64,000 nt of DNA. Source: an uncultured Verrucomicrobiae bacterium. GTDB taxonomy: Bacteria > Verrucomicrobiota > Verrucomicrobiia > Chthoniobacterales > JAATET01. How positions within the stretch are numbered: the first letter of the stretch is position 1; every line of letters begins with the position of its first letter. Shown one piece after another: positions 12,716 to 36,232 of this stretch. The stretch covers positions 577,455 to 641,454 of the forward strand of contig CAVXHK010000003.1 of the NCBI GenBank assembly GCA_963761705.1, in the 5' to 3' direction. The notes under the pieces are model-generated. The model worked only from the letters and a program-made list of their open reading frames with translations, ran no database searches and was not told the origin of the DNA. The position numbers and the translations under genes were made by a program.

Positions 12716-12786
12716 TCGCGTGAGTTGGCGGCGGTGGAGCTCAGCGGGAGAGCTCGCCCGCGAAATTTCCGGCGTAGATCAAGGAC

Positions 12787-13071
12787 GTGACCGATGGCTT
12801 GCGTTGGATCGTGTCAAACCGACGCGGATGCCGACGATCCGCCAACTTTTTCGCTGCACGGGAGAAGGACGAAGTCGTGCCGGTCGAGCGGAGTGGGATG
12901 ATGATGGCGGAGCTGGATCGAGTTGGGGTGCCGGTGGAATTGGTGACGTTTTCGGAGGAGGCTCATGGGTCTCCGCCGGATGCGGAGACGTTGCAGCGAG
13001 TCGCTGCCCTCTTTGGGCGGTGGCTTTCGTGCCGCGCTCACGGAGAATTTAAGGCAGGACCATTTTGGTGA
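12787..13071 (+). pseudogene. C-terminal remnant of an alpha/beta-hydrolase (esterase/peptidase S9-like)
   Basis: Only the last ~90 aa of the fold are present (DDPPTFSLHG|EKDEVVPVERS...VELVTFSEEAHG). They are split between two frames at cacGGGagaagg (about 12858-12863). There is no room for the N-terminal part, because the lipocalin stop is at 12715. Confidence 0.5.
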
Positions 13072-13082
13072 CGGCGATCTTT

Positions 13083-13118
13083 CCGGCTGGAAGCCGGAAA
13101 GGACGGGCTGGAAGCCCG
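13083..13118. repeat. two adjacent GGCTGGAAGCC-core hairpins
   Basis: CCGGCTGGAAGCCGG (13083-13097) and CGGGCTGGAAGCCCG (13104-13118). The same core recurs at 38279-38289 and as ACCGGCTGGAAGCCGGT at 56945-56961. Confidence 0.5.
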
Positions 13119-13143
13119 CGCTCCCCGGTGGTTAAGGTGGGGG

Positions 13144-14598
13144 ATGGAAGAGACCGGTTTGAGTGAGTTGCTGGCGGTGCGCCGGCAGAAGTTGGACGCG
13201 TTGGTGGAGGCAGGGGTGGCTCCGTACGGGGCGGCGTACGAGACCGATGGGGCGGTCGCGGACGTGCGGGCGCAGTTCGCGGAGGAAGCTCCGCTGCGGA
13301 TGGCTGGGCGGATCACGGCGCATCGTGACATGGGGAAGAGTCAATTTCTCGACCTGTCCGACGCGACGGGACGGATGCAGATTTACGTTCACGCGAAGGA
13401 AATCGGGGTGGATCAATTCGCGATTTTTCAACAGCTGGACATCGGGGATTTCGTGGGCGTGGAAGGGGTCGGGTTCATGACGCGAACCGGGGAACCGACC
13501 GTCAAGGTTAGTGGGTTCAAGGTGCTCAGCAAATCGCTGAAGCCGCTGCCGGACAAGTGGCACGGGGTGCAGGACACGGAAATCCGCTACCGGCAGCGGT
13601 ATCTGGATCTCATCGCTAACGAGGAGTCGCGGGAGATTTTTCAGAAGCGGGTGACGATCGTGCGGGAGATCCGGCGATTTCTGGAAGACCGGGCCTTTAT
13701 CGAGGTCGAGACGCCGATGATGCAGTCGGTCGCGGGGGGCGCGGCGGCAGAGCCTTTTAAGACGCACCACAACGCGCTCGGGATGGACCTTTTCCTGCGG
13801 ATCGCGCCGGAGCTGTACCTCAAGAGGCTGCTGGTGGGTGGATTCCCGAAGATCTTCGAGCTGAATCGAAATTTTCGAAACGAGGGGATTTCGCGGCGGC
13901 ACAATCCGGAATTCACGATGCTGGAGGCGTATTGGGCCTTCGCCGATTTCGAGAAGATGGCGGATCTGGTCGAAGAAATGATCTGTCACCTCGCGGAGAT
14001 GGTTTGTGGCGGGTTGAAGATCGAGCACAAGGATGGTGACGGGAACGTGACACGGACGATTGATCTCACGCGTCCCTGGAAGCGGGAGCGCTACGCGGAT
14101 CTGATCAAGTCGGTTCAGCCGGACTGGTATGAGCTGACGCCAGAACGGCGGCGCGAGCGCTGCCGGGAGATTGGGTTGGAGGTGTCGCAGTGCGTGGCGG
14201 ATTTCGAGGTGACCCAGCACGTGTTCGAGAAGCTGATCGAGGAGAAGCGGATGGATCCGCTCTACGTGACGCACTGCCCGAAGGAGCTGGTGCCCCTGGC
14301 GAAACAGAACGTCGAGGATCCGTCGGTCGTGGACGTTTATGAATTGGTCATCAACGGCCAGGAGATCTCGCCGGGTTATTCCGAGCTCAACGACCCCACG
14401 GTGCAGCGGGAGCGACTGATGGAGCAGAGCGGCGGGGAGACGCAGATGCTGGATGAGTCGTTTCTCGAAGCGCTGGAATACGGGATGCCGCCGGCGGGCG
14501 GGATCGGGATCGGGATCGACCGGTTGGTGATGATGTTGACCGGAGCGGAATCGATTCGCGACGTCTTGTTCTTCCCGCAGATGAAACCGCGAGGGTAG
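13144..14598 (+). CDS. lysS: lysine--tRNA ligase (class II)
   Basis: Full-length LysRS-II: OB-fold N-domain, FRNEGISRRHNPEFTMLE (motif 2 region) and GGIGIGIDRLVMMLT (motif 3). Confidence 0.92.
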   Translation: MEETGLSELLAVRRQKLDALVEAGVAPYGAAYETDGAVADVRAQFAEEAPLRMAGRITAHRDMGKSQFLDLSDATGRMQIYVHAKEIGVDQFAIFQQLDIGDFVGVEGVGFMTRTGEPTVKVSGFKVLSKSLKPLPDKWHGVQDTEIRYRQRYLDLIANEESREIFQKRVTIVREIRRFLEDRAFIEVETPMMQSVAGGAAAEPFKTHHNALGMDLFLRIAPELYLKRLLVGGFPKIFELNRNFRNEGISRRHNPEFTMLEAYWAFADFEKMADLVEEMICHLAEMVCGGLKIEHKDGDGNVTRTIDLTRPWKRERYADLIKSVQPDWYELTPERRRERCREIGLEVSQCVADFEVTQHVFEKLIEEKRMDPLYVTHCPKELVPLAKQNVEDPSVVDVYELVINGQEISPGYSELNDPTVQRERLMEQSGGETQMLDESFLEALEYGMPPAGGIGIGIDRLVMMLTGAESIRDVLFFPQMKPRG

Positions 14599-14640
14599 GT
14601 GGCGCTTGCCGCCGCGGAAGGGGTGGCGTTTGATCGACCG

Positions 14641-15291
14641 ATGGAAAATGCAACTCCCGACTCGATCGTCGAAGCTCTGAATTGGCGTTATGCGACCAAG
14701 AAATTTGACCCGGAGCGGCGGATCGACGCCGCGACCTGGGAGGCCCTCGAGCAGTCGCTCGTCCTGGCTCCGTCGTCGTTTGGGTTGCAGCCGTGGAAGT
14801 TTGTGGTGGTCGAGGACCCGGCTAAACGTGAGGAGTTAGTCGGGAAATCCTGGGGCCAGAAGCAAGTGGTGAACGCGTCGCACTTGGTTGTGTTCGCGGT
14901 AAAGAGTCCGCTGGACGCTTCGGACGTGCGGCGGCACATCGAACGGACGGCGGCGGTGCAGGGGATGCCGGTCGAGACGCTGGCCGGATTTGAAAAAGTG
15001 GTGGCCGGATTTTTGGAGAAACCACCTTATCCCTTGGATCTGCGAGAGTGGGGTTCGCGCCAGGTTTACATAGCCCTGGGGAACTTCATGCTAGCGGCGG
15101 CGATGATGGGAGTGGACACCTGTCCAATGGAAGGGCTCGATCCGGCGGGTTACGACGACGTGCTGGGACTGACTGGAACCGGTTTTTTCACGGTCGTCGC
15201 GTGTCCGACCGGTTACCGCGCGACGGACGACGCGTCGGCGGGGCGGGCGAAGGTGCGATTCCCACGCGAGGACGTGATCATCCACGCCTGA
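14641..15291 (+). CDS. NAD(P)H nitroreductase family protein
   Basis: MENATPDSIVEALNWRYATKKFD...SSFGLQPW, the nitroreductase-fold N-terminus. The ATG at 14641 is preferred to the track's 14599 alternative start. Confidence 0.8.
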   Translation: MENATPDSIVEALNWRYATKKFDPERRIDAATWEALEQSLVLAPSSFGLQPWKFVVVEDPAKREELVGKSWGQKQVVNASHLVVFAVKSPLDASDVRRHIERTAAVQGMPVETLAGFEKVVAGFLEKPPYPLDLREWGSRQVYIALGNFMLAAAMMGVDTCPMEGLDPAGYDDVLGLTGTGFFTVVACPTGYRATDDASAGRAKVRFPREDVIIHA

Positions 15292-15320
15292 GTCTCCGAC
15301 GGAAATGCGAATGCGTTTCT

Positions 15321-15424
15321 AACCGGAAGGTAACGAAGGGAACGAGGAATACAGAATTTGGCTCGGAAAGTGTGAGTTGCTCGAGGAGATGCCGAAGGCA
15401 GGCACCTCTATGTTACCTTTGGTT
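15321..15424. repeat. REP-like palindromic element, degenerate copy A
   Basis: Left arm AACCGGAAGGTAACGAAGGG pairs with right arm GTTACCTTTGGTT, which overlaps the MMPL stop codon. It shares the GAAGGTAACGAAGG core with copies at 21034-21124 and 28460-28535. Confidence 0.5.
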
Positions 15425-17779
15425 CAAACGGGATTGTATTTCCACCCAAAGCCGCGGGAGTAGGTAAATGGCGATGGCCGTGTTGGCGGCGAAACCGAGC
15501 GCGCAGACTCGGCCGAGGCTGGCCAGGCCTTCGCTGGCGGCCCAGCTGATACTGGCGAAGCCGACGGTCGTCGTGATGCCGCACAGGAGAAGGGCGGTAC
15601 CGACGGTGCGGTGAGTGGTGGCTAGGTTACCGTTCGTTTCGCGGAGGGCGCGGATGAGGTGGATGCTGAAATCGACGCCGGTGCCGAGGAGGAGAAGAGC
15701 GGCGGCGATGTTCATGAAGTTCCACGTGAATCCGAGCAGAGTCATTCCGCCGAGCAGCGTGAGGGTGTTAAGCGTGAGGATGCCCATGGCGAACAGCACG
15801 TCGAACGCGTTGCGGAAGGCGAGGATGAGCATGACGATGAGCACGGCGGCGAAGATCGCGAGGGGGATGATCATTTCCTCGGCGGCGAAGCGGGCGAGCT
15901 CTTGCCCAAGGAGTGGCCAGCTGAGGAGCGCGATGCCGGGGGCGTTGATCTTGGCGGGGAGGGAGGCGTAGTCGGCGTCGGAGAGAGAGGGGGCGGGTTC
16001 GACCGCGCCCATCGCGGCGTTGGGGCGGTGGACGGCGCGGCGGAGGATCCAGAGGGTCCGGTCGTCGTGGGGCCAGATCGGTGGGGTTGAGAATGTCTCC
16101 CACCGGTCCAACAAAGCGTCGGTGAGGGCGAAGGCTTGCTCGGTGAAGCCCGCTGTTTCGAGCGCGGAAGCGAGTTGGTCGCGAGCAGCGATGGCGGGCG
16201 CGATGGCCGCGAGGTTCCTTTGCTGGGCGGCGGAGTCTGGCCAGAAAGCGGTGGGTAGAAGGGAACTCTTCACGAGGCCCTCCGCTTTGAGCCGTTCAAT
16301 CGACGCGGTGGCGTCGAGGAGGCGGGCGTGGATCTGAGTCGGATCGTCGCCGGTGACGAGGAGGTTGAGCGTGCGGGGTGAGTCGGCGAGTTTTTCGTAG
16401 ATCCGGTTAACCGTCTCGTAGGCGAGGCTGTTGCGGGGTTTCAACGCGGCGGCGGTGGATTCAAGGCCCGGGAAGCCATCGACCACGAGGGTTGCGAGCG
16501 CGGAGAAGACAGCGAGACCGGTGAGGGCCGCTCCGGTCGCCAAGCCGCGGACCCGAGACTGGGTGGCGGGCGCTGGCCTCGCGAAGCGGACGACGGCCTT
16601 GGTGAAAAGCGTCAGCATGAGGGTTGCTCCCGCAATGACGCCGAGGGCGACGAGGAGCCCGAGCTGGGCGAGGCCGGGGACGCCGGAGAAGAGGAGGCTG
16701 GCGAAGGCGGCGGCGGTGGTGGCGGCGGCCCACGCGATGCCGGGGGTGCATTCGCGGCGGAGGGTGGCGGCGTCGGTACGGCGGTTGAGGTGGGTCTGGT
16801 AGATGATGAGGCCGTAGTCGACGTTGATGCCCACGAGGATGGAGGCGAAACCGGCGCTGATGATGGTGATGCCGCTCTCGATGAATCCGGCGACCGAAAG
16901 GGCGATGACGAAACTCAGACCGAGGAGGCCGATGAGAACGGCAAGGGTGATGAAGCGGCGGTAAACGGCGAAGAAAATGATCCCGACAATGGCGGCGGTC
17001 ACGAGGCCACTTTGGCGCATTTCGGTTTCCATCCCGGAGGAAAGCTCCGAGACGAAGGCGGGGTCTCCGGCGATGCCGATCTGGATCGCCGCGGGGTCGG
17101 GTTGGGATTTTTTCCAATCCGCGATGCTGGCTTTAACGGCGGTGATCCAGTCGGTCGCGAGGCGGTAGTTGGCGAGGTCGGTGGCGGCGGTGACGTAGAG
17201 GGCGCGAAAGGTGCCGTCGGCGGAGACGAATTCGGATTTGCTGGGGGAGTCGCCGGTGGGGGCGATGGTCTGGAGGTTGGGAAGGAGGCGGTAGGGATCG
17301 TAGCCGAGGAGGGCCAGGTCCTGTCCCGAAAGCGTGTTCGTGAGCTCGGCGAGGGCAGATTGGGCGTTGGCGGGGGCGGCGGCGGGGTCGAGTGCGCCGA
17401 CGATCTTGGCGAAGTCAGCGGGCGGGAGGTTGATCGCGGTGTAGGCGGCGAAGTCGGCGAGCTTCTCGGGCTCGGCTTCCCAGAGGGGCCGGTCGACAAC
17501 GAGCTTGGTGAGGTCGGACTCGCTGCGGAGGTGGTCGGCGAGGCTGGAGGCCGCGAAGGTGGTGAGGTTGGGGTCGGCGGTTTCGACCGTGACGATGAGT
17601 TCGTTCGGAAGGCCAAAGTTCTCGAGGACGGTCGCGAGACCCTCGGCTTGGTCGATGTTCGGCGGGAGGAGGTCGAGGATCTCGACGTTGAAGCTGATGC
17701 GGGAGAGGCCGAGGAAGATCAACGCGCAGGCGAGGACGATGAATACGGGTTTGGACCACGGATGGGCACGAATGGACAC
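15413..17779 (-). CDS. MMPL/RND-superfamily exporter
   Basis: 788 aa with two blocks of ~6 TM helices separated by large loops, the architecture of 'predicted exporter' MMPL proteins. It is the last gene of the 21026->15413 operon. Confidence 0.75.
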   Translation of the reverse strand: MSIRAHPWSKPVFIVLACALIFLGLSRISFNVEILDLLPPNIDQAEGLATVLENFGLPNELIVTVETADPNLTTFAASSLADHLRSESDLTKLVVDRPLWEAEPEKLADFAAYTAINLPPADFAKIVGALDPAAAPANAQSALAELTNTLSGQDLALLGYDPYRLLPNLQTIAPTGDSPSKSEFVSADGTFRALYVTAATDLANYRLATDWITAVKASIADWKKSQPDPAAIQIGIAGDPAFVSELSSGMETEMRQSGLVTAAIVGIIFFAVYRRFITLAVLIGLLGLSFVIALSVAGFIESGITIISAGFASILVGINVDYGLIIYQTHLNRRTDAATLRRECTPGIAWAAATTAAAFASLLFSGVPGLAQLGLLVALGVIAGATLMLTLFTKAVVRFARPAPATQSRVRGLATGAALTGLAVFSALATLVVDGFPGLESTAAALKPRNSLAYETVNRIYEKLADSPRTLNLLVTGDDPTQIHARLLDATASIERLKAEGLVKSSLLPTAFWPDSAAQQRNLAAIAPAIAARDQLASALETAGFTEQAFALTDALLDRWETFSTPPIWPHDDRTLWILRRAVHRPNAAMGAVEPAPSLSDADYASLPAKINAPGIALLSWPLLGQELARFAAEEMIIPLAIFAAVLIVMLILAFRNAFDVLFAMGILTLNTLTLLGGMTLLGFTWNFMNIAAALLLLGTGVDFSIHLIRALRETNGNLATTHRTVGTALLLCGITTTVGFASISWAASEGLASLGRVCALGFAANTAIAIYLLPRLWVEIQSRLNQR

Positions 17780-17809
17780 GGCTGGATGAAATGCTCGGAC
17801 GGATCCGGG

Positions 17810-18448
17810 TTAATCTGTGTTCATCCGGGGTTCGAAGATGTCGGCGGGGAGGGGGTGGTTGACGTCGACCTTGGTGAACTTGGTTTCGAGGCCGCCACCG
17901 TTGGTGAGCTCGACGTTGAACTTGGTGAGGATGCCGGTGGCGGTTTCGTATTCGAGGTTGATCGCCGCGACGAATTTGGTGGCCTGCGCGTCGCGGGGAA
18001 CGAGGTCGAGCTCGGTGCGGTCGCCGGATTCGTCCATGCGCGTTACGTCGAAGAGTTGGCGGAACTTCGCGAGCGAATCGGTCACGGGGAACCGCATGAG
18101 CATGAGCTGCTGGGTCTCCGGGTTGGCGGCGGACTCGTTGATCTCGCGAACGGTGTTCTTTGTTTTGTCGAGGAGCGTGAGGGTGTCACCGCGGCGGATG
18201 GCGATGGTCTCGGGCGGCTCACCGAGTTGGAAGCGGAAGCTGCCGTCGTTCTCGAACCAGATCTTGCCGGTGGTGCGGGAGGGGATGCGGAGGGTGGGGA
18301 GGCGGCGGGTCTGGGCAAATTCACCCTGGAGGGTACGAACGGTTTGCTGCCGGGCGATCCAACTCTCAATCGCTAACCAGTCGGGTTCGGCGGATTGGAT
18401 TGGCCGCGAGAAGGCGCAGAAGGCGCAGAGAAGGAGGAGAATTTTCAT
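17810..18448 (-). CDS. LolA-like outer-membrane lipoprotein carrier family protein
   Basis: Real start is ATG 18448 (MKILLLLCAFCAFSRPIQSAEP, signal peptide), which overlaps the upstream stop as ATGA. Size and sequence fit LolA-fold proteins of lipid-export clusters. The rest of track ORF 17810..18853 is a spurious extension. Confidence 0.65.
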   Translation of the reverse strand: MKILLLLCAFCAFSRPIQSAEPDWLAIESWIARQQTVRTLQGEFAQTRRLPTLRIPSRTTGKIWFENDGSFRFQLGEPPETIAIRRGDTLTLLDKTKNTVREINESAANPETQQLMLMRFPVTDSLAKFRQLFDVTRMDESGDRTELDLVPRDAQATKFVAAINLEYETATGILTKFNVELTNGGGLETKFTKVDVNHPLPADIFEPRMNTD

Positions 18449-19686
18449 CGGATCGCGAATTTGCGGGGATCGCTGCGGGCGGTGGCGAGGTGGCCGACAG
18501 CTTTGAGGAGTTGGCGGCTGTACGTGCGGGTCGTGAAAGCTCCGGAAGCCATGCAGCCGAGGTGCTTGGCGATGTGCGCGTCGATGAGTGTGGTGACGCG
18601 ATTCGGGTGGGCGGCGCGCCACTTGGCTCCGGTCTCGTGCATGGCGAAGATGTGTCCGCTGTAGAAATACTCGATGAATTGCATCCAGCAGGTGAGGTGG
18701 TGATTCATCCAATTGCCGTAGGCGGAGAGAGCGTGGTCTGGTTTTTTTTCGGCGAGAAGGTCGGCGAGTTTCTCGGCGGAACCGAGGGCGGTGATCATGC
18801 CCGGTGAGAGCATGGGGTCGACGAACCCGAACGCGTCGCCGATGGCAGCCCAATTCTCGCCGGTGCCGCGCTCGGAGATGAGCTGGTAGTTCGCGTAGGT
18901 CTGGACGGGGGTGATTCGACGGGCGTTGCGGGCTTCATGGCTGAGAGCAGGGTCGTGGCGAAGGACGTGGTCGAGACGGGCTTCGGGGGTGTCGCCCAGA
19001 TCGGCGGCCCGGCGGTTGTCGAGGACGATACCGAAGGAGGTGCAATCGCGAAGCGGGATCCGCCAGGCCCAACCGTGGTCGAGGTGAATCGCGGCGATCT
19101 GGCCGCGGGGCGACTCGGCGGTAAAACCTTCGTAGTGGGCGAAATGCGAGACGTCTTTGCGCGGACCGAATTGGGCGGGGATCCGGAGAAGACGGGCGAA
19201 CGCGCGGCGGCGTCCCGTCGCGTCGATCAGGAGATCGGGCTGGCGGTCGTGCCAATCGGGGACCTCGGATAGGCTTTCGGGAGTGAGCTCGACGCGGCCA
19301 TCGGTGGCCTGAACGTCGGCTCGACGACGGATCACCGTGGCTCCGGCATCGCGGGCGGTTGAGGCAAGCAGGTCGTCGAACTTGGGGCGGGGGATGTTGT
19401 AGGAGTAAGTCGGGAGGTAACCGCGAACGGTCTCGAACGTGAAGTCGATGGCGTCTTCGGGAAACGGGACGAACGATGCGCCGGGCTTGCGGAGGCTGAA
19501 GGCGGCGACTTTCTCCTCGATGCCGAGGCGTTGGAGAATCGGGACGACGGCGGGGATGTTTGACTCTCCGACGATCAGGTCGGGCCGTTGGCCTTCGTCG
19601 AAGATTGCGACATCGCAGCCACGCCGGGTGGCGAAGGTCGCGAAGGCGGATCCGGCGGGCCCGCCGCCGATGACTGCGATTCTCAT
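18445..19686 (-). CDS. FAD-dependent halogenase-like oxidoreductase
   Basis: N-terminal GGGPAGS dinucleotide motif and a WxWxIP motif (GWAWRIP, nt 19054-19071), the signature that separates flavin halogenases from monooxygenases. ATGA overlaps at both ends. Confidence 0.7.
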   Translation of the reverse strand: MRIAVIGGGPAGSAFATFATRRGCDVAIFDEGQRPDLIVGESNIPAVVPILQRLGIEEKVAAFSLRKPGASFVPFPEDAIDFTFETVRGYLPTYSYNIPRPKFDDLLASTARDAGATVIRRRADVQATDGRVELTPESLSEVPDWHDRQPDLLIDATGRRRAFARLLRIPAQFGPRKDVSHFAHYEGFTAESPRGQIAAIHLDHGWAWRIPLRDCTSFGIVLDNRRAADLGDTPEARLDHVLRHDPALSHEARNARRITPVQTYANYQLISERGTGENWAAIGDAFGFVDPMLSPGMITALGSAEKLADLLAEKKPDHALSAYGNWMNHHLTCWMQFIEYFYSGHIFAMHETGAKWRAAHPNRVTTLIDAHIAKHLGCMASGAFTTRTYSRQLLKAVGHLATARSDPRKFAIR

Positions 19687-21026
19687 GAGACCGGGGTGCG
19701 TCTGATTTTGCCGCTGGGGGTTTTTGGGATTTCGGTGACGGTGCGGAATTCGAGCGGGACCTTATACCGAGCGAGGTGTTCGCGACAATACCGGGAGAGG
19801 ATCGCGGCGGATGGCGGATTCCCCGGGTCGGAGGGGAAGATCTCAGCGGCGGGGACGGAGCCGAACTGCGCGCTCGGTCGCGGGTAAACGCGGGCTTCGC
19901 GGACGGCTTCGTGAAGCGTGAGGACGGCTTCGATTTCTTCGGGAAAGCACTTGAGGCCGCCGACGTTGATCACGCAGGCGGTGCGGCCTTCGAGATAAAG
20001 AAATCCCTCGGCGTCCTGCCGAGCGAGGTCGCCGGTCGCGAACCAACCGTCGGCGTCAAGGACCTCGGTGCGGCTGCGCGGAGGTGAAAGGTAGGCGTCA
20101 AAGAAACCGGGGCCGCGGACGTGGAGGGGGCCGATGCCCTGCGGGTCGGGGTCGCGGACTTCGACTTCGAAACCGGGTTGCGGACGCCCAACGGATTCTG
20201 GACGCCCGGCGGGGTCGTCGAGGTTGAGGCACGGGAGACCGCATTCGATGATGCCGAGGCCCTGGCTGGGCGCGAGGCCGTAGCGGGTGGCGAAGGCGCG
20301 CGAGGTCTCGGCGGGAAGACGGGCGGAGGTGGAGACCGAGAGGCGAAGGGTCGGCCAAGGATCGCTGGATTTTTCCGCGGCGAGAAGTTGGTGGTGGAAC
20401 GGGGAGCCGTAGAAGACGGTGGCGTCGTGTTGGCGGGCGGTGGCCAGAATATCTGCGGCGAAGTGGCGATCGGGGAGGACGGTGGCGGCTCCATTCCAGA
20501 GGTAGAGCATGATCGAGACGGCGAAATGGTGTGCCATCGGGAGGATCCAGACGATGCGGTCGTCGGGGGTGATGCGGAGTCCGGCGTTGGCGGCTTCGAT
20601 GCGGGCGAGGAGGGTTTCGTGGGAGATGAGGACCCCTTTACTCGTGCCGGTGGTGCCAGAGCTGAAGCGGATGAAGGCCGGGTAAATTTGCTCACGCGAA
20701 GCCCTGAAGTCGCGAAGGGAAAGGGCAGCGGAATTGTCGAGAACGAGATCGGCCCCGGTGGTCGCGAGGAGCCGCTCGCGCTCGGGTGGAGCGAGTTCCG
20801 GGGGGATGGGGATGAAGGTGGCTCCGGAGCGGAGGATGGCGAGGGCTTGGACGATGTAATCGACGCCGTCGGGGTGGAGGAGGGCGATGCGGGGGACGGG
20901 CGGGAGGGTGGCGGCGGCTTCGGCGGAGAGGCTGTCAAGTTCGCCGTAGGTGACGGAGCGGGTGGGCGTCAGGATCGCTGGGGATGAAGGGATGGCGCGA
21001 CGGAAGATTTCTGTGGTTAGGTTCAT
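19683..21026 (-). CDS. AMP-dependent synthetase/ligase (adenylating enzyme)
   Basis: Start at ATG 21026 (MNLTTEIF...). Contains FSSGTTGTSKGV (A3 core), GWFATGD and PKTPSGKIRR (A10). The 773-aa track ORF's P/A/T/S-rich N-terminus is off-frame reading through the autotransporter 3' end. Confidence 0.85.
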   Translation of the reverse strand: MNLTTEIFRRAIPSSPAILTPTRSVTYGELDSLSAEAAATLPPVPRIALLHPDGVDYIVQALAILRSGATFIPIPPELAPPERERLLATTGADLVLDNSAALSLRDFRASREQIYPAFIRFSSGTTGTSKGVLISHETLLARIEAANAGLRITPDDRIVWILPMAHHFAVSIMLYLWNGAATVLPDRHFAADILATARQHDATVFYGSPFHHQLLAAEKSSDPWPTLRLSVSTSARLPAETSRAFATRYGLAPSQGLGIIECGLPCLNLDDPAGRPESVGRPQPGFEVEVRDPDPQGIGPLHVRGPGFFDAYLSPPRSRTEVLDADGWFATGDLARQDAEGFLYLEGRTACVINVGGLKCFPEEIEAVLTLHEAVREARVYPRPSAQFGSVPAAEIFPSDPGNPPSAAILSRYCREHLARYKVPLEFRTVTEIPKTPSGKIRRTPVS

Positions 21027-21033
21027 GCGGTTT

Positions 21034-21124
21034 TTGAACAGAAGGAAACGAAGGTAACCAAGGGGCGAAAATGCAATGAGGCGTCCCCCGTATTTCTTCG
21101 TTTCCTTCGTTACCGTTTGTTCAA
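21034..21124. repeat. REP-like palindromic element, copy B
   Basis: GAAGGAAACGAAG (21041-21053) pairs perfectly with CTTCGTTTCCTTC (21096-21108), and TTGAACA pairs with TGTTCAA at the outer ends. The loop core GGGGCGAAAATGCAATGAGGCGTC is 21/24 identical to copy C. It fills the gap between the autotransporter stop and the ligase start. Confidence 0.6.
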
Positions 21125-24100
21125 AACTGGATTCCGAGGCTCGCCGATACGGTGTGGCTGGTGAGGTCTTGGCGACCGAAGTCGGCATTGTAGTAAACGG
21201 AAGTGTTCCAGCGGTCGCCGAGTTGCGCGGTGACGCCAGCGCCCGCGAAGACACCGTCGCGACCGGGGTCGGCGGTGGCGGTGTCGAAGCTGGGGCCGGA
21301 TCCGGCGTCGAGGGCGGATCCGATGTTGCGGGAATTGTTGAGGAATTCGTGCTGCCAGAGGAGGCGGATCTCCGGAATGAGGCGGATGTTCGTTGTGAGG
21401 TCGATTGAGTAGGCGACGCGGCCGCCGAGGGTGGAGCGGAGACTGTGGACGTCCTGCTGATCGACGCGGAGGTCGAGGCTGTCGGCGTTGGTTTCGGTGA
21501 AGGGGGCGATGCCGAGGTAGGTGTATTGGGCTCCGGCGATGGGGCCGAAGGTGAAATTGCCGATGGTCCAGTCTTTACCGAGGTTGAGGGCGGCGCTTGC
21601 TTGGCCGGTCTCCTGGTCGCTGCGGGCCAGGCGGTCGACGGTGGAAAACTCGATTGCGCGGCGGACGCGGGCGCTGCTGAAGCCGCCGGAGATGACGCCG
21701 TCGGCGTAGTAGCCTTCGTGGGTGCAGCTGGCATAGGTGCCGAAGAGGGCGGAATTGATGACGGTGGAGCCGCCGCCGTCGTAGTCGGCGGTGGTGCCTT
21801 GGTAGCCGGCGAAAACGCCGGTGGTGAGGCCGTCGCGTTCGCTTCCATTCCAATCGTAGTCGGCTCCGATGAGGAAGCCGCCCGAGTCGAAACGGTGGTT
21901 GGGGACCTGGTTAACGCTGGTGACGCGGGCGAAGATGCCGCTGCCCATGGCCCAAGCGGTCCAGTCTGTGGGGGTGTTGGCGGCGGGGTCTTTGGGGTCG
22001 GCAAAGGCCTTGCCGTCCTTGTCGAAGGTGAGCGGTTCTTCGTCGAGGCCCATGAGCTGGAAGCCGCGGGCGCCGAGCCGGGCGGAGCTGAGGCGTTGGT
22101 TGACGAGTTGGGTGCGGGTGAAGGTTTCCTGAATCTGAATGTTGGCGATGCTCTGGTGGAAGGCGGGCGAGATCTGGTCGAAGGCGGCGGGGTAGCCTTC
22201 GGCGGTCAGAAAGTCGAGAGCGAGGGAGACGCGGTTGCGGTCGGGGTCGGACGAATCGATGAAGCTGTCCAGGGCGCGGGCGACGTTGCGCTGGTTCTGA
22301 GTTCCGGCCACGAGCGTGTAGCTGGCCGGCGCGATGAGGAGAGTGCCGGTGCCGGAGTCGTTCAAGAAGCGACCGCGGTAACGGGAGGGATCGGCGAAGG
22401 TGATGCGGTCGAAGTCGCCGGTGATGCGGTCGGCGAAGAGGAGGGGGATTCTTTGGCCGAAGGCAAACGACTTGCCGAGATTGATGGTGCGGAGGGTCCC
22501 GGCGAGCGCCGCGGTGCCGGTGACGAGGAGACGGTCGAAGGCGGCGGGGCTGGCAACTTCGAGATCGAAAGTGCCGGTGGCGGTCTGGGCGAAGTCGCCG
22601 TTGATGGAGAGGGTGCCGGGACTGTTGCCGGGGGAAAGAGTGCCGCGGTTGGTGACATCGCCGATGAGGAGGCCGGTGCCACCGAGGAGGGCGGTGCGGG
22701 CGACGTCGACGCCGCCGGGCGATCGAAGGGTGCCGTTGACGAGGAGACCGCCAGACTCGACGAGGGTGGCGCCGGCGACGTCGAAGGTATTGCTCGTGAT
22801 CAAAGAGCCGGGGCCGGTCTTGCGGAGATCGCCGGGAGTGCGCAGGAGGTCGCCGGTGATGAGGCTGGTGCCGCCGAGCGCGTTGAGTTCGCCGGAGGTG
22901 ACGGTGAGGGTGTTGAAGATTTGGAGCGAGCTGCCGGGCTGGAAGCGGAGGGAGTTAATGGTGTTGTCCTCGGTCGGGGTGCCGGTGGTGACGCGGCCGT
23001 CCACCGTGAAGTCGGCGGTGGTCGCGACGTTGACGGGATTGCTGTTTTGGAGGAGGGGGCCGGAGGTGACGGGCGGCGGCGTGAAGGTGACGAACAGGCG
23101 CTTGCCCGCGATGCGGAAGATGGGGACGAGTTGTTGAAGGCGGTTGCCGAGGAAGTCGGTGATGGCGTCGAAGCGCGCGAGATTGCGGGCGGTGAGGATG
23201 AGATACTCGGCGGCGGGGTCGAAGCGGGCGGTGTTGTTGAAGCGGAAGCGAATGGGATCGGACAGGCTCAGTCGACCCCGGGCGTTGACGAGGTCGGTTT
23301 TGTTGCCGAGATCGGTGGCGATCCGGCCTCCACGGTAGTCGAGCGAGTTGATGTTCAGCGTTCCCACCGGGTCGAGAGTGCCGTCGTTCAACGTCACCGC
23401 CGCGCGGCGACCGAGGGCGGAGGAATTGGTCGTCCGAACGGTCCCGGCGTCGATGGTGGTGCCGCCGGTGTAGCTGCTTTGGCGGGAGAGCGTCAGCGTG
23501 CCGGCCCCGGTTTTGGTGAGTCCGCCGGCGCCGGAAATGGGAGCGTTCAGGCGAAGGGTGGCGTCGGCTTGCAGGGTGCCGCCGCGTTTTTCGAGGACGA
23601 AGAACCGGCTCGTTGCGAGGGCGGCGGTGTTTTGCAGGGTTCCGCCGTCGAAGGTCACGAACGTGCTCCGAGCGCCGAGGTTTTCGTCGCGGCTGATCGA
23701 GAGGGTGCCTTTGGAAAGATGGGTGCCGCCGGAATAGGTGTTGGTGCCGGTGAGGATGGTGCGGCCAGGGCCGCTGTGATTGACGGTGACGGTGCCCGAG
23801 ATCGTGATGGGCGCGCCGCCCGGCGTGCCGTCGGTGGTGAACGCGTAGTTGGACTGCGAGTGGTCGAAGTTCAGCGTGGCCATTCCGTCTCCACCGTTGA
23901 TTTCCCCGACCGAGAGAATGCCCGCGGTGCCGCCGGTGCCGACGTTGATCGTGCCGATGGAACCGCTTTCTTCGGCGAGGGCGATGACGGGAGCGCGGAC
24001 GGTGCCCCCGGTAAGGTCGAGGCGACCGGTGCCGCCGGAGCCGACGGAGAGACCGTCCGAGTTGGTCCAAGAGCCGCCGCTGACCTGAACGGTGCCGGTC

Positions 24101-25146
24101 GAGCCGGGTTCGACGCCGAGGAAGCTGATCTGGTTGGTCACGCTGCCCGTCCCGCTGACCTCGAGGATGCCTTCGCCCTCGAAACCGAGGATGAGGTTGG
24201 ACGCGAGGGTCCACGAACCACCGCTGAGCGATACCGTGCCGATGGCGTCCTGATCGAAGCCGACGATGGCGCCCTGGCTGTCGACCTGCCCGGTGCCGCT
24301 GATTTCGAGCGTGCCCATGCCGCGATTGCCGACGGTGAGGGTGTCGGAGTTCGTCCAGGTCCCGCTGGAGATGCGGGCGGTGCCGACGGAACCTTCGAGG
24401 AAGCCGAGGAAGCCGGTGGCGTTCGTGACGGTGCCGCCGTTGGTGACCTCGAGGGTGCCGTTGCCGCTGGACCCGATGACGATGGCGCCGTTGCTGGCGA
24501 GGGTTCCCCCTGATACTCGCGCGACTCCAGTGGATCCGGTGTCGCCCGCAATGCCGACCACGACGCCGGTGACCGAGCCGCCGGTCGGAACGTTGAGCGT
24601 GGCGTTGTCTCCCGGGTCGAAGCCGACGACGATCTGGCCGGAAGGGGTGTTGATCGAGCCGGAGACGGCGAGGGTGCCGGTGCTGATGACGGTGTCGCCG
24701 GTGTAGGAGTTGGCGGCGGAGAGGGTGAGGGTGCCGGGACCCTGTTTGGTCAGGGAACCTGAGCCGGTGACCGGGGCGGAGATGGAGGTGTTGCCAGCGG
24801 CGGTGGTGAAGTTGGTGTTCCCAGCGATCTCCAAATTGCCTGACCCCGAGGCCGTGACGGTGTAGCCCGGAGTCTGGAAATCGACGTCGGCGGGGTCAGC
24901 GGTGAAGCCGTCGGCGATGGTGGCGGTGCCAGCTGTACCGGCGAAGACGGCGTCAAGCCCGCCCGCCCAAGTTGCGTTGGCGGTGCCGGCGGTGTTGGTC
25001 CAGTTGGTGGTGGCGACGTTCCAGATGCCGGTGCCGCCGTCGATGGTGCCATTGGCGGTAGTGTTGGCTCCGTCCCAGAACTGCTGAGCGTCCAATGTTG
25101 CGATGGTAAGCGCCGCTAAGAGGAGCAATGAGAATTTGGTTGTCAT
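21121..25146 (-). CDS. autotransporter outer-membrane protein with autotransporter-associated beta-strand (PATR) repeats
   Basis: Signal peptide from ATG 25146 (MTTKFSLLLLAALTIATLDAQ). It has a dozen or more G-T/S-rich 'GxGTLTLSxxNSYTGxTxIxxGTL' repeats and a C-terminal beta-barrel domain ending ...SLGIQF with a terminal Phe. The + ORF 21445..24513 is its antisense shadow. Confidence 0.85.
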   Translation of the reverse strand: MTTKFSLLLLAALTIATLDAQQFWDGANTTANGTIDGGTGIWNVATTNWTNTAGTANATWAGGLDAVFAGTAGTATIADGFTADPADVDFQTPGYTVTASGSGNLEIAGNTNFTTAAGNTSISAPVTGSGSLTKQGPGTLTLSAANSYTGDTVISTGTLAVSGSINTPSGQIVVGFDPGDNATLNVPTGGSVTGVVVGIAGDTGSTGVARVSGGTLASNGAIVIGSSGNGTLEVTNGGTVTNATGFLGFLEGSVGTARISSGTWTNSDTLTVGNRGMGTLEISGTGQVDSQGAIVGFDQDAIGTVSLSGGSWTLASNLILGFEGEGILEVSGTGSVTNQISFLGVEPGSTGTVQVSGGSWTNSDGLSVGSGGTGRLDLTGGTVRAPVIALAEESGSIGTINVGTGGTAGILSVGEINGGDGMATLNFDHSQSNYAFTTDGTPGGAPITISGTVTVNHSGPGRTILTGTNTYSGGTHLSKGTLSISRDENLGARSTFVTFDGGTLQNTAALATSRFFVLEKRGGTLQADATLRLNAPISGAGGLTKTGAGTLTLSRQSSYTGGTTIDAGTVRTTNSSALGRRAAVTLNDGTLDPVGTLNINSLDYRGGRIATDLGNKTDLVNARGRLSLSDPIRFRFNNTARFDPAAEYLILTARNLARFDAITDFLGNRLQQLVPIFRIAGKRLFVTFTPPPVTSGPLLQNSNPVNVATTADFTVDGRVTTGTPTEDNTINSLRFQPGSSLQIFNTLTVTSGELNALGGTSLITGDLLRTPGDLRKTGPGSLITSNTFDVAGATLVESGGLLVNGTLRSPGGVDVARTALLGGTGLLIGDVTNRGTLSPGNSPGTLSINGDFAQTATGTFDLEVASPAAFDRLLVTGTAALAGTLRTINLGKSFAFGQRIPLLFADRITGDFDRITFADPSRYRGRFLNDSGTGTLLIAPASYTLVAGTQNQRNVARALDSFIDSSDPDRNRVSLALDFLTAEGYPAAFDQISPAFHQSIANIQIQETFTRTQLVNQRLSSARLGARGFQLMGLDEEPLTFDKDGKAFADPKDPAANTPTDWTAWAMGSGIFARVTSVNQVPNHRFDSGGFLIGADYDWNGSERDGLTTGVFAGYQGTTADYDGGGSTVINSALFGTYASCTHEGYYADGVISGGFSSARVRRAIEFSTVDRLARSDQETGQASAALNLGKDWTIGNFTFGPIAGAQYTYLGIAPFTETNADSLDLRVDQQDVHSLRSTLGGRVAYSIDLTTNIRLIPEIRLLWQHEFLNNSRNIGSALDAGSGPSFDTATADPGRDGVFAGAGVTAQLGDRWNTSVYYNADFGRQDLTSHTVSASLGIQF

Positions 25147-25838
25147 TGGCGATTCGTTGCATTCGGTCTGCCCGATTTTCTGAGTCGTCCTGCAGCAGTC
25201 TCGGACGGGCTTTGCCATCCTCCGCGAGTTTCTCGAGATCGGAGCGAAAAGGTCAGGGCAATTCCTCCGATCACGAGGAGGGCAATCACGCCCGGCTCAG
25301 GGACTGCGCCGGTGACAATGGGTTGGTTGAATTCGGTCTCGATGGCGTGGTCGACGAGGGTGAGGGTTGAATTTGGCCCGTCGTCGACGTAGGTGAAGCG
25401 CGCCCAGCCGAAGCGGGTATTGTCCTCGTCGGCACCGGTCATGAGTCCGATGAACCCGGTCGCGCCGCCGCCGTAGCCGCCGACGGTCTCGTTGAAGAGG
25501 TCCTGGTAGAAGAAGCCGTTGTTCTGGGCGGAGAGGAACGTCTTGTCGATGGTGACGCCTGGTCCGATGAGTGGGAGACCTTCGTTCGGGTTTGCGCGGA
25601 TGAGGCCGGTGAAGCCTTCGACCTCGGGCGAAGCGGGATCGTTGGAGAGGAAGAGGAGGCGGGCGTCGTTGCCGGGGCCGCCGCTGTAGTTGAAGAAGGC
25701 GTCGCCGCCGGTGGGGGTGATCGTGAGGTTGACCGGGCCGGAGTAGATGATGGCGGCGTGGGTGAATGGCGCGAGGGGGAGGATGAGGATGAGGCCTGCA
25801 GCGGTCGCGCCGAGTAATTTGAATGGCGTTGCGATCAT
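25143..25838 (-). CDS. PEP-CTERM domain protein
   Basis: Signal peptide and a C-terminal VPEPGVIALLVIGGIALTFSLRSR sorting motif (PEP + TM + basic). Its stop overlaps the autotransporter ATG as ATGA. Confidence 0.75.
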   Translation of the reverse strand: MIATPFKLLGATAAGLILILPLAPFTHAAIIYSGPVNLTITPTGGDAFFNYSGGPGNDARLLFLSNDPASPEVEGFTGLIRANPNEGLPLIGPGVTIDKTFLSAQNNGFFYQDLFNETVGGYGGGATGFIGLMTGADEDNTRFGWARFTYVDDGPNSTLTLVDHAIETEFNQPIVTGAVPEPGVIALLVIGGIALTFSLRSRETRGGWQSPSETAAGRLRKSGRPNATNRQ

Positions 25839-25860
25839 TTTGACGGTTCGCGGCGGCGGG

Positions 25861-27441
25861 TCAGCGTCGGAAGCGGCCGAAGGTGTAGCGGGGGCGGCGG
25901 GTGGTGTTGTCGTTTTCGACGAAGGCTTCGGTGTAGTCGTCGAAGTCGAAGTAGTCGTCGAGGGCGGGGAGGTTGAGTTGCCGGAACCGGGCGTCGCGGG
26001 CGTTGGTGAAGCGGGCGGCCCGGAGACCGGTGCGGTCTTCGCCCCGGGTCATGTAATAGAACGTGTCGCCGGAGAAGTGCCGGAGGATGAATCGCTGGCG
26101 GTCGGGGCCGATGCGCATGATCAGGCGATTGCCGCGGGCTTGGAGGCGGACGGGGCCGTAGAAGCCGCTCCGGTAGCGGCCGGCGTAGGAGGAGAGGGGG
26201 CGCGGTGGGGTGAAATCGGCGGGGCGGCGGCGGTAGTCGGTTGGGTCGCGACCAAGCTGGTCGGCAGCGAGTTCCGCGAAGCGCTCGTTGGCGAAGGCGA
26301 CCCAGTTGCGGCTGAGCTTGCCGAGGAAGAGGAAGTCAGCGAACGAGAAGTCGAGGCCTTCCGGGATGCCGTGCGGAGCGGAGTTGCAGAGGACGGCAAT
26401 GCCGAGATTTTCGGTTGGGTAAAGCGCGACGGCGGAGCGGACGCCCAGGAAGAATTCGCCGGAGTGGGACCAAACGGTGCGGTCGAATCGGGTGCCAACG
26501 TTCCAGCCCAGACCATAGAATCCGCCAGTGGTCTTGATCTGGGGGCGGTGGGTTTCGCCGAGGGGCTGGGCGGCAATGATCTGCCGGCCCTCGAAACGTC
26601 CGCCGTTGAGCTGGAGTCGCAACCAGCGCGACAGATCGCGAACGTTGGTGCTGACGCCGCCGGCGGGGGCTTGGGCGTCGGCGTTGCGACGGAAGCGGGC
26701 GACCCATTTTCCGTTCATGATAAAATCGTTGTCGTCCGGGGTATGCATGGCGGCCCGGTTGGGCGCGGACCGAAAGTCGGCTGAGCGCATGCTGGTGGAG
26801 GTCATGCCCAGAGGGTCGAACAGGCGGCGTTCCGCGATGGTGGGCCAGTCGGTGCCGGCCGCGGCAGCGGCGGCGAGTCCGCCCACGGTGAGCCCCATGT
26901 TCGAGTACTCGTAGCGGGAGCGGAATCCGCCGAGGAGGGGAAATTGGCGGAGGCGGCGGACGATCGGCGCTTGGGAAAAGCCGAGGTTTTCGAGGAGATC
27001 GCCGGCGTGAGGGGGGAGGCCGGTGCGGTGACTGAAGGCATCGCGGAGACTGACATTCCGGGTGGCGGCGGGATTGCTGAGGCGGAAATTGGGGAGGTTC
27101 CTGATGAGGGGCTCGTCCCAGGTGACGGTGCCGTCGCCGACGAGTCCGGCGACGATGGTGCTGGAGATGGGCTTGGAGACGGAGGCGATCTGAAAGACCG
27201 TGTCCGGCGTGACGGGCTGCGAGGTTCCCACTTTGCGAACACCGTAGCCCTTGAGGAAGATGACCTCGTCATTGTGAACGACCGCGATGGCCATGCCCGG
27301 AATCCCGGTCGTGCGCATGGCGCGCTCGGCGACGGCGTCCATGCGAAGGACGGCGGTTTGGACGGCTTCGCGACTGAGCTGGGCCGAGAGCGACGAGATA
27401 GCAAGGAGGCTGGCGAGAGTGGTGGCGAGGCGGGTTTTCAT
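25861..27441 (-). CDS. serine hydrolase, beta-lactamase/PBP4* family (secreted)
   Basis: Signal peptide and an SxxK motif (ASVSKP) about 70 aa in; 526 aa with a C-terminal extension domain. Confidence 0.8.
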   Translation of the reverse strand: MKTRLATTLASLLAISSLSAQLSREAVQTAVLRMDAVAERAMRTTGIPGMAIAVVHNDEVIFLKGYGVRKVGTSQPVTPDTVFQIASVSKPISSTIVAGLVGDGTVTWDEPLIRNLPNFRLSNPAATRNVSLRDAFSHRTGLPPHAGDLLENLGFSQAPIVRRLRQFPLLGGFRSRYEYSNMGLTVGGLAAAAAAGTDWPTIAERRLFDPLGMTSTSMRSADFRSAPNRAAMHTPDDNDFIMNGKWVARFRRNADAQAPAGGVSTNVRDLSRWLRLQLNGGRFEGRQIIAAQPLGETHRPQIKTTGGFYGLGWNVGTRFDRTVWSHSGEFFLGVRSAVALYPTENLGIAVLCNSAPHGIPEGLDFSFADFLFLGKLSRNWVAFANERFAELAADQLGRDPTDYRRRPADFTPPRPLSSYAGRYRSGFYGPVRLQARGNRLIMRIGPDRQRFILRHFSGDTFYYMTRGEDRTGLRAARFTNARDARFRQLNLPALDDYFDFDDYTEAFVENDNTTRRPRYTFGRFRR

Positions 27442-27529
27442 GTTGATTGGTGGGTATGGGTCGAGGTGGTGCCGATGCTACGGGTTTTATCCGCTACTCT
27501 GTCGATAAAACCTATTATTACTCGTCGAA

Positions 27530-27558
27530 TGACATCAATTGTTGACGGGTGACATCGA
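27530..27558. promoter_or_regulatory. direct repeat TGACATCAA-N11-TGACATCGA in the divergent promoter region (candidate LytTR box)
   Basis: Two 9-mers, 8/9 identical, start 20 bp apart just upstream of or overlapping the LytTR regulator start. LytTR regulators typically bind paired 9-bp direct repeats about two helical turns apart. Confidence 0.3.
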
Positions 27559-27578
27559 CTGGATTGAATGCCGCTCCG

Positions 27579-28454: not shown

Positions 28455-28459
28455 TTTTG

Positions 28460-28535
28460 AACAGAAGGTAACGAAGGGGCGAAAAGGCAACGAGACGTCA
28501 TCCGGATTCCTGCCTTTCCTTCGTTACCTTCTGTT
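28460..28535. repeat. REP-like palindromic element, copy C (probable bidirectional terminator)
   Basis: Perfect 18-bp inverted repeat AACAGAAGGTAACGAAGG (28460-28477) / CCTTCGTTACCTTCTGTT (28518-28535) with a 40-nt loop. It fills the convergent gap between the LytTR gene and the FAD-oxidoreductase gene, and the right arm overlaps that gene's stop codon. Confidence 0.7.
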
Positions 28536-30893: not shown

Positions 30894-30917
30894 CTCTTGT
30901 GCGGCTGAGGTGAGAAC

Positions 30918-31217
30918 TCAGAGTTTCTTCACTTCGTTCAAAGTGACAGGGGGGAGGTGCACCGCTTGGTATTGGAGGACGAGGGCGGTGATGGCTTTGA
31001 TGGTACCGAAATTTTCGGTGGTCATTTCTTCGGGAGGGATGGCGACGCCGAAGCCGTCTTCGATCATCACGAGGAGTTGCATGATGGCCATGGAATCGAG
31101 GCCTGCGGCGAAGAGGTCGGACTCGATGCTGAAATCGGGTGGTGTCTCGAGGAGGTTGTTGGCAATCATTTCGAGGAGCGCGGCTTCAATGGTTTCGGGT
31201 GTGAGATCAGACGGCAT
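30918..31217 (-). CDS. acyl carrier protein
   Basis: Start ATG 31217 (MPSDLTPETIEAALLEMI...), with a GLDSMAIMQL phosphopantetheine-attachment motif; ~99 aa. Confidence 0.8.
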   Translation of the reverse strand: MPSDLTPETIEAALLEMIANNLLETPPDFSIESDLFAAGLDSMAIMQLLVMIEDGFGVAIPPEEMTTENFGTIKAITALVLQYQAVHLPPVTLNEVKKL

Positions 31218-33152: not shown

Positions 33153-33234
33153 GGCTGCGATGATGGACAGGTGAAACGACGAGGCGACGAGGGGCGAGTG
33201 ATTTATTTCGATCGAGGCAACGTCACGTAACCGG

Positions 33235-36228: not shown

Positions 36229-36232
36229 GGGA

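Follow-up and report, generated by a model that had tools for sequence, protein, structure and literature searches.

The stretch of DNA analyzed here (the window) comprises 64,000 nucleotides of a contig from an uncultured Verrucomicrobiae bacterium of the order Chthoniobacterales, and the system in question is an operon of four genes at 15413-21026 on the minus strand. In the direction of transcription, the operon encodes a short ANL-family AMP-ligase of 447 aa that is predicted to load an acyl carrier protein (ACP) (19683-21026; Pfam PF00501, E = 2e-45, together with AMP-binding_C), a putative flavin-dependent halogenase of 413 aa of the PltA/Mpy16/CmlS/FasV type (18445-19686; Trp_halogenase PF04820, E = 4e-25), a LolA-like periplasmic carrier of 212 aa with an N-terminal signal sequence (17810-18448; PF03548, E = 2e-12, 47.8 bits, above the cut-off), and an MMPL/RND-type inner-membrane exporter of 788 aa (15413-17779; MMPL PF03176, E = 2e-24). 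These four identities had been given in a preliminary description of the window, and the open reading frames (ORFs) and Pfam matches were in agreement with them. Direct reading of the sequence also confirmed that start and stop codons overlap as ATGA at 19686-19683 and 18448-18445 and that 30 nt (17780-17809) separate the LolA and MMPL genes. However, the operon does not stand alone as a unit of four genes: a larger conserved cluster, of which it forms the distal half, continues at 28535-33152.

This second half is located on the same strand, 7.5 kb upstream of the four-gene operon. It contains the genes for a PF12831-type flavin adenine dinucleotide (FAD)-dependent oxidoreductase of 344 aa, hereafter the flavoprotein (28535-29569; FAD_oxidored, E = 1.5e-55); a stand-alone acyltransferase of 449 aa resembling PapA5, WS-DGAT, and the condensation (C) domains of nonribosomal peptide synthetases (NRPS), hereafter the C-like protein, which was assigned by motif, profile, and fold and has no Pfam model (29544-30893); an ACP of 99 aa with the phosphopantetheine site GLDSM (30918-31217; PP-binding, E = 9.5e-13); a patatin-like phospholipase whose start codon is uncertain (31207-32169; Patatin, E = 2e-22); and an MprF-type flippase-like membrane protein (32097-33152; LPG_synthase_TM PF03706, E = 2.5e-26). 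The carrier and the attachment step that the preliminary description had deduced would thus be supplied by the genes at 28535-33152. The flippase-like gene also adjoins the cluster at the related loci L005, L006, L014, L028, L030, L031, L034, L064, and L065. Upstream of it in the window are the genes for a 349-aa membrane protein with no Pfam match (33787-34836, immediately upstream) and a class-III aminotransferase (34903-36282), and this pair was syntenic only in L005 and L006.

Sequence features of the cluster proteins

The C-like protein gave no match in Pfam at E ≤ 5, and none in a PDB search with the single sequence. It carries the motif S149-H150-L-L-F-D154-G155, in which the His, Asp, and Gly residues were invariant in 39 sequences and the first His of the canonical HHxxxDG is replaced by Ser; this Ser and the preceding W148 are likewise invariant in the family. 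A profile of the family matched NRPS C domains at E = 1e-5 and also PapA5. The AlphaFold2 model (pLDDT 86.5, pTM 0.89) retrieved with Foldseek the structure 8S6L, annotated as PapA5-like (E = 6e-22, TM-score 0.73), followed by TRI3 (1e-18) and many NRPS C and Cy domains (approximately 1e-17). Among the curated models, Pfam Condensation, WES_acyltransf, and PapA_C did not match, and the NCBIfam WS/DGAT model matched weakly (29.5 bits against a cut-off of 310). By its predicted fold and its motif, the protein is a member of the condensation superfamily that falls in no curated family. Several relatives carry an ACP-C fusion of 566-584 aa, which indicates that the ACP and the C-like protein are functionally linked, and the latter is predicted to be a stand-alone acyltransferase drawing its donor from the ACP. 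Clustered at 50% identity, the family (E ≤ 1e-30) amounts to at least 429 clusters, and it lacks a Pfam model.

The flavoprotein is shorter than its relatives (approximately 410 aa), but despite the internal deletions it retains the invariant residues H52, C55, Q156-R-P158, R244-E245, W275-P276-x-E278, and H321. Its AlphaFold2 model (pLDDT 93) resembled only generic two-domain FAD folds, with TM-scores of 0.35-0.49.

The second gene of the operon had been read as a flavin-dependent halogenase from the GGGPAGS and WAWRIP segments, both of which are present as described (residues 7-13 and the codons at 19071-19054, respectively). The WxWxIP motif and a catalytic Lys distinguish flavin-dependent halogenases from monooxygenases of the same fold. 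In 38 relatives, including the paralogues of Chthoniobacter flavus, the GxGxxG motif (G7-G-G9-P-A-G12), G40-E41, K67, and W206xW208xI210P211 were all invariant. In alignments, K67 falls on the conserved Lys in the KKP, KKF, KKY, and RKY segments of CmlS, Mpy16, ChlB4, and FasV (8ZOP); from the residue count and an assumed tag offset of 20 residues, we take it to be the counterpart of CmlS K71 (equivalent to PrnA K79). The check on the active-site Lys that had been called for therefore turned out in favor of a halogenase. The best PDB matches were 8ZOP (FasV, 5e-41), Mpy16 (2e-29), ChlB4 (6e-28), and CmlS (1e-27), followed by PltA (3e-24) and Bmp2 (4e-24), and eight halogenases in all span 5e-41 to 1e-21; the entries 8ZOP, 5BUK, 7FCO, 3I3L, 5DBJ, and 5BUL were among these best relatives. 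In this clade of halogenases, carrier-tethered or phenolic substrates are the rule.

The NCBIfam models were ambiguous for this protein. The monooxygenase QhpG gave the best score (118 bits) ahead of CmlS (106 bits), and the geranylgeranyl reductase and LodB/GoxB families matched as well, all below their cut-offs. On these scores the protein might instead belong with the QhpG/LodB-like monooxygenases or the geranylgeranyl-reductase-like enzymes, which share its fold, and act as a hydroxylase or a reductase, in which case the lipid would be oxidized or reduced and not halogenated. We regard this as quite improbable, since in the same PDB sequence search QhpG (7CTQ, a peptidyl-Trp dihydroxylase) reached only 9e-8 and since the WxWxIP motif and the Lys are kept across the whole family, paralogues included. 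The preliminary description had allowed for an enzyme that lacks the Lys and aligns with non-halogenating monooxygenases; here the Lys is present and the top PDB relatives are all halogenases. The halogenase thus looks genuine from its sequence, and halogenation itself is the activity to be expected of it.

The AMP-ligase carries the motif LPMAHHF, which we take to be of the acyl/aryl-CoA-ligase type and not of the amino-acid type, and its best PDB matches were a mixture of oxalate-, malonyl-, feruloyl-, and fatty-acyl-CoA ligases. The LolA-like protein passed only the general Pfam LolA model, and the NCBIfam cut-offs for flexirubin LolA2 (53 bits, cut-off 125) and TIGR00547 lolA (49 bits, cut-off 112) were both missed. 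The cluster showed no gene for a dedicated flavin reductase. A nitroreductase gene at 14599-15291 was considered as the flavin reductase partner of the halogenase and was rejected, since it is coupled to lysS and is missing from all the related loci.

Conservation of the cluster in Verrucomicrobia

A profile of the 449-aa C-like protein was scanned over one genome per species, and 80 loci were obtained, nearly all from Chthoniobacterales, Terrimicrobiaceae, 'Spartobacteria', Prosthecobacter, and Brevifollis. Sixty of them, in which the gene has its usual neighbors, are called type A; in the counts below, the denominators are the loci with enough sequence to judge. The related loci contain ACP, C-like, flavoprotein, AMP-ligase, and halogenase genes in this contiguous order. 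The flavoprotein gene follows the C-like gene in 56 of 57 type-A loci, with the AMP-ligase gene directly after it in 50 of 53, and a halogenase gene was found in 41 of 50. Less constant in type-A loci were a methyltransferase (25/50), MMPL (20/42), and LolA (18/40), and a patatin gene lies upstream of the ACP gene in 26 of 52 related loci. To this core the Chthoniobacterales loci add PlsC acyltransferases, a deacetylase, a methyltransferase, and MMPL-LolA. Relatives of the halogenase flavoprotein in the window are abundant in Verrucomicrobiota, and in their genomic contexts the core is surrounded by genes of these kinds and by patatin, the deacetylase being of the NodB type and the LolA-MMPL pair convergent.

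The cultured type strain C. flavus Ellin428 has a contiguous cluster of approximately 19 genes (L087, GCA_004341915.1, 100-20995). Its gene set includes a polysaccharide deacetylase, two PlsC proteins, patatin, ACP, C-like protein, flavoprotein, AMP-ligase, halogenase, and methyltransferase. A Lip_A_acyltrans gene is also part of it, halogenase paralogues are present in three copies, and the MMPL-LolA pair occurs twice. In the 2008 draft of this strain (L072, 11335-12583) the PF12831 gene appears frameshifted, but it is intact in the newer assembly (415 aa), which indicates a sequencing error. In Prosthecobacter, the five-gene core occurs alone amid housekeeping genes. In Prosthecobacter and Brevifollis (L084, 15272-16018; L077 and L078), a gene for an Rce1-like/CPBP membrane protein follows the core, in place of the methyltransferase or the MMPL-LolA pair.

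In the window and in its closest relatives L005 and L006, whose proteins are 82-85% identical to those of the window, the cluster is broken between the flavoprotein and AMP-ligase genes, which are adjacent in other Verrucomicrobia. Judged from this gene order, the two halves belong together. It could still be that the export genes stand next to the AMP-ligase and halogenase genes by chance, the MMPL and LolA proteins forming a general lipid exporter of the HpnN or BstA kind. HpnN and BstA are indeed the top NCBIfam matches of the MMPL protein, and MMPL-LolA genes occur near the core in about half of the loci, where they are usually convergent and not co-directional. However, the HpnN (hopanoid) and BstA (sterol) transporter scores were far under the equivalog cut-offs (127 bits against 752 and 67 bits against 1400, respectively), and in the window the genes appear to be translationally coupled, with the ATGA overlap between halogenase and LolA and only 30 nt between LolA and MMPL. 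Moreover, MMPL-LolA recurs beside the same core in approximately 20 independent genomes, with two pairs in the C. flavus cluster. Chance juxtaposition is therefore very unlikely. The MMPL protein of the window is 38.5% identical over its full length to that of the C. flavus cluster, and the LolA proteins are 33% identical.

Type-B paralogues of the C-like protein (approximately 33-35% identical) were found in Terrimicrobiaceae, at L053, L056-L063, L066-L070, L073, L074, and L076. They are orphans amid housekeeping genes, for instance those for MnmG and TrpA; genes for an ACP, an AMP-ligase, or a halogenase do not occur nearby, and these paralogues were set aside as uninformative.

Ketosynthases and comparison with known systems

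Aryl polyene (APE) clusters are defined by the core genes for ketosynthase (KS; apeO/R), chain length factor (CLF; apeC), dehydratase (DH; apeI/P), and ketoreductase (KR; apeQ). The preliminary description had found none of these in the window. For KS, CLF, and DH this was borne out: Pfam analysis of the called genes, a few short ORFs being left out, gave no KS, CLF, or DH in the 64 kb, and six-frame tblastn with FabF, FabH, ApeO, ApeR, and ApeC gave no KS/CLF match. A FabA/FabZ-type Pfam match was also absent from the window, although a very remote DH could have escaped the ApeI and ApeP queries, given their short length and their divergence. For KR it was not, since a single gene of the short-chain dehydrogenase/reductase (SDR)/KR family exists at 5359-6207; its product is 37% identical to E. 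coli FabG, and it lies approximately 9 kb past the operon in an unrelated context. When the verrucomicrobial type-A loci were searched by six-frame tblastn, none of them had a KS closer than 10 kb to the cluster, and no KS was present in the 21 kb of the C. flavus cluster.

The families of the cluster do, however, occur in APE-like clusters that contain a polyketide synthase (PKS). At L065, from a 'Spartobacteria' metagenome-assembled genome (MAG), a single minus-strand operon (13916-20717) encodes KS, a CLF-like protein, MMPL, LolA, a FabA-like DH, and an LpxL-like acyltransferase. Its MMPL protein is 37% identical to that of the window. Paralogues of the halogenase gene and of the C-like gene adjoin the operon, as does a flippase-like gene, and the locus is a KS-containing, APE-like counterpart of the system in the window. 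Outside Verrucomicrobia, L047 and L055, from a Binatia and a deltaproteobacterial MAG, respectively, contain a C-like gene, the PF12831 flavoprotein gene, and genes for two paralogous halogenases and for three AMP-ligases, in the neighborhood of a FabF-like KS (38% identity), a second KS/CLF, an ApeE-like ACP (41%), and a FabG-like KR (44%).

These loci raise the alternative that the genes in the window are the loading, tailoring, lipid-anchoring, and export part of an ordinary APE/xanthomonadin-type pathway whose KS, CLF, KR, and DH genes are at another locus. The arcuflavin genes of Azoarcus sp. BH72 (arcA-X) are split in this way: the KS, CLF, and KR genes and the halogenase gene lie away from the arcM-arcX locus, which holds a methyltransferase, a polysaccharide deacetylase, an exporter, LolA, an acyltransferase, an AMP-ligase, and an ACP. 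The xanthomonadin/arcuflavin product is a halogenated, membrane-bound pigment lipid, and its genes may be spread over several loci. We nevertheless hold this alternative to be unlikely, though less so than a non-halogenating enzyme or a chance juxtaposition. KS genes were not detected within 10 kb in the verrucomicrobial type-A loci or in the window, the five-gene core of Prosthecobacter is a tight and self-contained operon, the gene sets described for APE clusters include no equivalent of the C-like protein, the flavoprotein, or patatin, and the E. coli Ape proteins show little or no sequence similarity.

The xanthomonadin and arcuflavin clusters (Xanthomonas pig and Azoarcus) are nevertheless a close parallel in composition. 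They share their accessory families with the verrucomicrobial set: an AMP-ligase, which in their case activates a hydroxybenzoate, a dedicated ACP, a halogenase, and an S-adenosylmethionine-dependent methyltransferase, as well as a polysaccharide deacetylase, phospholipid-type acyltransferases, an exporter, and a LolA-like protein. They differ in having the KS, CLF-like, KR, and DH proteins that build the polyene, none of which is encoded near the verrucomicrobial cluster, and in lacking the condensation-family transferase, the PF12831 flavoprotein, and patatin. The APE clusters of E. coli CFT073 and Xenorhabdus (apeA-R) share with it an ACP, the acyl-ACP synthetase ApeH, the LolA-like ApeL, and the RND/MMPL protein ApeM, and further the lysophospholipid acyltransferase ApeD and the methyltransferase ApeB, and their end product is an outer-membrane lipid. 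The APE core genes, along with ApeG and ApeN (DUF3261), are absent from the verrucomicrobial cluster. All four APE families, a dedicated ACP, an acyl-ACP synthetase, an MMPL/RND exporter, and a LolA-like protein, are thus present, at the family level only. Orthology to the E. coli proteins was rejected: BLASTP gave no match between the AMP-ligase and ApeH or between the LolA-like protein and ApeL, and marginal matches for MMPL (23% identity to ApeM, E = 4e-7) and ACP (E = 3e-4 to ApeE). Because KS, CLF, DH, and KR were searched for and not found in the cluster and the similarity to Ape proteins is marginal, the system does not appear to be a member of the APE family. The APE/xanthomonadin-like character ascribed to the export and tailoring genes in the preliminary description therefore stands at the level of protein families, as the Azoarcus arc cluster illustrates, and does not extend to true APE proteins, to which the similarity is remote.

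Two other types of pathway resemble the cluster in their logic. In the mycobacterial FadD-Pks-PapA-MmpL pathways for phthiocerol dimycocerosate, sulfolipid-1, and polyacyltrehalose, a carrier is loaded by an adenylating enzyme, PapA, an acyltransferase of the condensation family that stands alone, places the acyl group on a lipid or sugar, and the product is exported by an MmpL pump; the best fold match of the C-like protein is annotated as PapA5-like. Unlike these pathways, the cluster in the window has no Pks; the organism is diderm, the cluster includes a LolA-like periplasmic carrier and one or more predicted flavin halogenases, and the divergence of the C-like protein puts it beyond the reach of the Pfam models for Condensation and PapA. 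The carrier-dependent halogenation cassettes PltF/PltL/PltE/PltA, Bmp1-4, and Mpy likewise encode side by side an adenylating enzyme, a carrier, a flavin oxidoreductase, and a halogenase. Their halogenases belong to the PltA/Mpy16/Bmp2 clade, which supplied some of the best PDB matches of the halogenase in the window. In the window, by contrast, the AMP-ligase motif is of the acyl/aryl-CoA-ligase type, the oxidoreductase belongs to PF12831 and is not a prolyl-carrier dehydrogenase of the acyl-CoA-dehydrogenase type, and the later steps would be lipid attachment and export, whereas the cassettes yield a diffusible antibiotic. A proline-to-halopyrrole cassette analogous to PltF/L/E/A, which the adjacency of AMP-ligase, ACP, flavoprotein, and halogenase had suggested, was accordingly rejected as unlikely, since LPMAHHF is not the amino-acid FDxS motif with its Asp and the flavoprotein lies outside the acyl-CoA-dehydrogenase family.

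Proposed pathway and the segment splitting the cluster

We propose that the cluster whose distal half these four genes form, and which is conserved in Verrucomicrobia, serves the biosynthesis of a modified membrane lipid by PKS-independent loading, halogenation, transfer, and export, a reading to which we give slightly better than even chances. The AMP-ligase would adenylate a non-amino carboxylic acid, most likely a phenolic or otherwise electron-rich one, and load it onto the ACP encoded at 30918-31217. On the ACP, the PF12831 flavoprotein would modify the tethered acyl group and the flavin-dependent halogenase would halogenate it, and the condensation-family enzyme, through its HxxxDG motif, would off-load it onto the hydroxyl or amino group of an acceptor lipid in the membrane. 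This acceptor may be prepared by the patatin-like lipase and, in relatives, also by two PlsC-type acyltransferases and the NodB-type deacetylase. The MprF-like protein would then flip the product, the MMPL pump would extract it from the inner membrane, and the LolA-like protein would ferry it through the periplasm to the outer membrane. The scheme requires no KS for chain elongation. What the analysis establishes is the identity of the genes, their motifs and folds, the synteny, and the fusion of ACP with the C-like protein; the substrate class, the order of the steps, the acceptor, the halogenation, and the outer-membrane destination are what we infer from this gene set. The preliminary description had held that such a pathway type is not a described one, and literature searches on Chthoniobacter and Verrucomicrobia, halogenase, aryl polyene, PF12831, and 8ZOP indeed found no such cluster.

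Several observations weigh against this proposal. No member of the cluster has a known product, substrate, or activity; the AMP-ligase had no close characterized relative in PDB and NCBIfam, the fold search gave no informative structural relative of the PF12831 flavoprotein, and the cluster proteins missed every NCBIfam equivalog cut-off. No more than about half of the loci have MMPL-LolA genes beside the core. The window itself has no PlsC, deacetylase, or methyltransferase genes and its cluster is split, so that the local version may be reduced or rewired. Finally, versions containing KS/CLF exist, in the 'Spartobacteria' MAG (L065) and in other phyla (L047 and L055), and Azoarcus keeps its KS genes at a second locus; hence a KS may also be encoded elsewhere in the genome.

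The conservation of the cluster and the new transferase family are solid; the chemistry is conjectural. If the proposal is right, this conserved relative would retain the parts for loading, halogenation, lipid anchoring, and MMPL/LolA export, a condensation-type transferase taking the place of the PKS, and the export and anchoring machinery would be a reusable module that decorates the outer membrane with small acyl groups. It would also mean a new enzyme family of the size given above and halogenated envelope lipids in an abundant, poorly studied phylum of soil and freshwater. More broadly, many Verrucomicrobia (Chthoniobacterales, Terrimicrobiaceae, Prosthecobacter, and Brevifollis) might make undescribed halogenated outer-membrane lipids without a PKS, with loading, flavin modification, and halogenation on the carrier followed by transfer, using this new, Pfam-less branch of the condensation superfamily as the transferase and a dedicated MMPL-LolA export route, in an APE-like envelope-lipid system that does without the polyene; we offer this wider generalization tentatively and think it rather doubtful. 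As C. flavus Ellin428 is cultured and has the complete contiguous cluster, the hypothesis is directly testable in this strain.

The segment that interrupts the cluster in the window measures 7.3 kb (21121-28454) and, according to Pfam, contains four genes outside the pathway: an autotransporter of 1365 aa with PATR repeats (21121-25218, minus strand), a PEP-CTERM-like ORF (25143-25838, minus strand), a beta-lactamase-family gene (25861-27441, minus strand), and a GAF-LytTR regulator (27549-28454, plus strand). At L005, an autotransporter alone occupies the same place (12763-18186, 1807 aa; 71% identical over 613 aa), indicating that the interruption predates the divergence of these genomes; the other three genes are extra in the window compared with L005.

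Two full copies of a palindromic repeat (approximately 85-95 nt) bracket exactly this segment. One is at the junction with the AMP-ligase gene (21032-21126; inverted arms of 31 nt, 84% complementary) and the other at the junction with the flavoprotein gene (28456-28539; arms of 22 nt, 95% complementary), and a half copy lies downstream of the MMPL gene (15326-15338). The arms read TTTTGAACAGAAGG[A/T]AACGAAGG..., and a 13-mer of the element occurs five times in the window against an expectation of 0.21. The copy at 21032-21126 has a predicted RNA fold of -34.7 kcal/mol (z = -3.5) and overlaps the stop codon of the autotransporter gene, and 5 nt remain between it and the ATG of the AMP-ligase gene. 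Since all copies sit at the 3' ends of genes, a repetitive extragenic palindromic (REP)- or terminator-like element is suggested. The element was not found in the 86 loci used for comparison.

A scan of 15200-33400 for promoter and terminator consensus sequences showed no enrichment over shuffled sequence. The GC skew of the plus strand is strongly positive over 1-64000 (+0.06 to +0.31 in 2-kb windows), whatever the orientation of the genes, and beyond 15 kb the majority of genes lie on the minus strand and hence on the C-rich strand.

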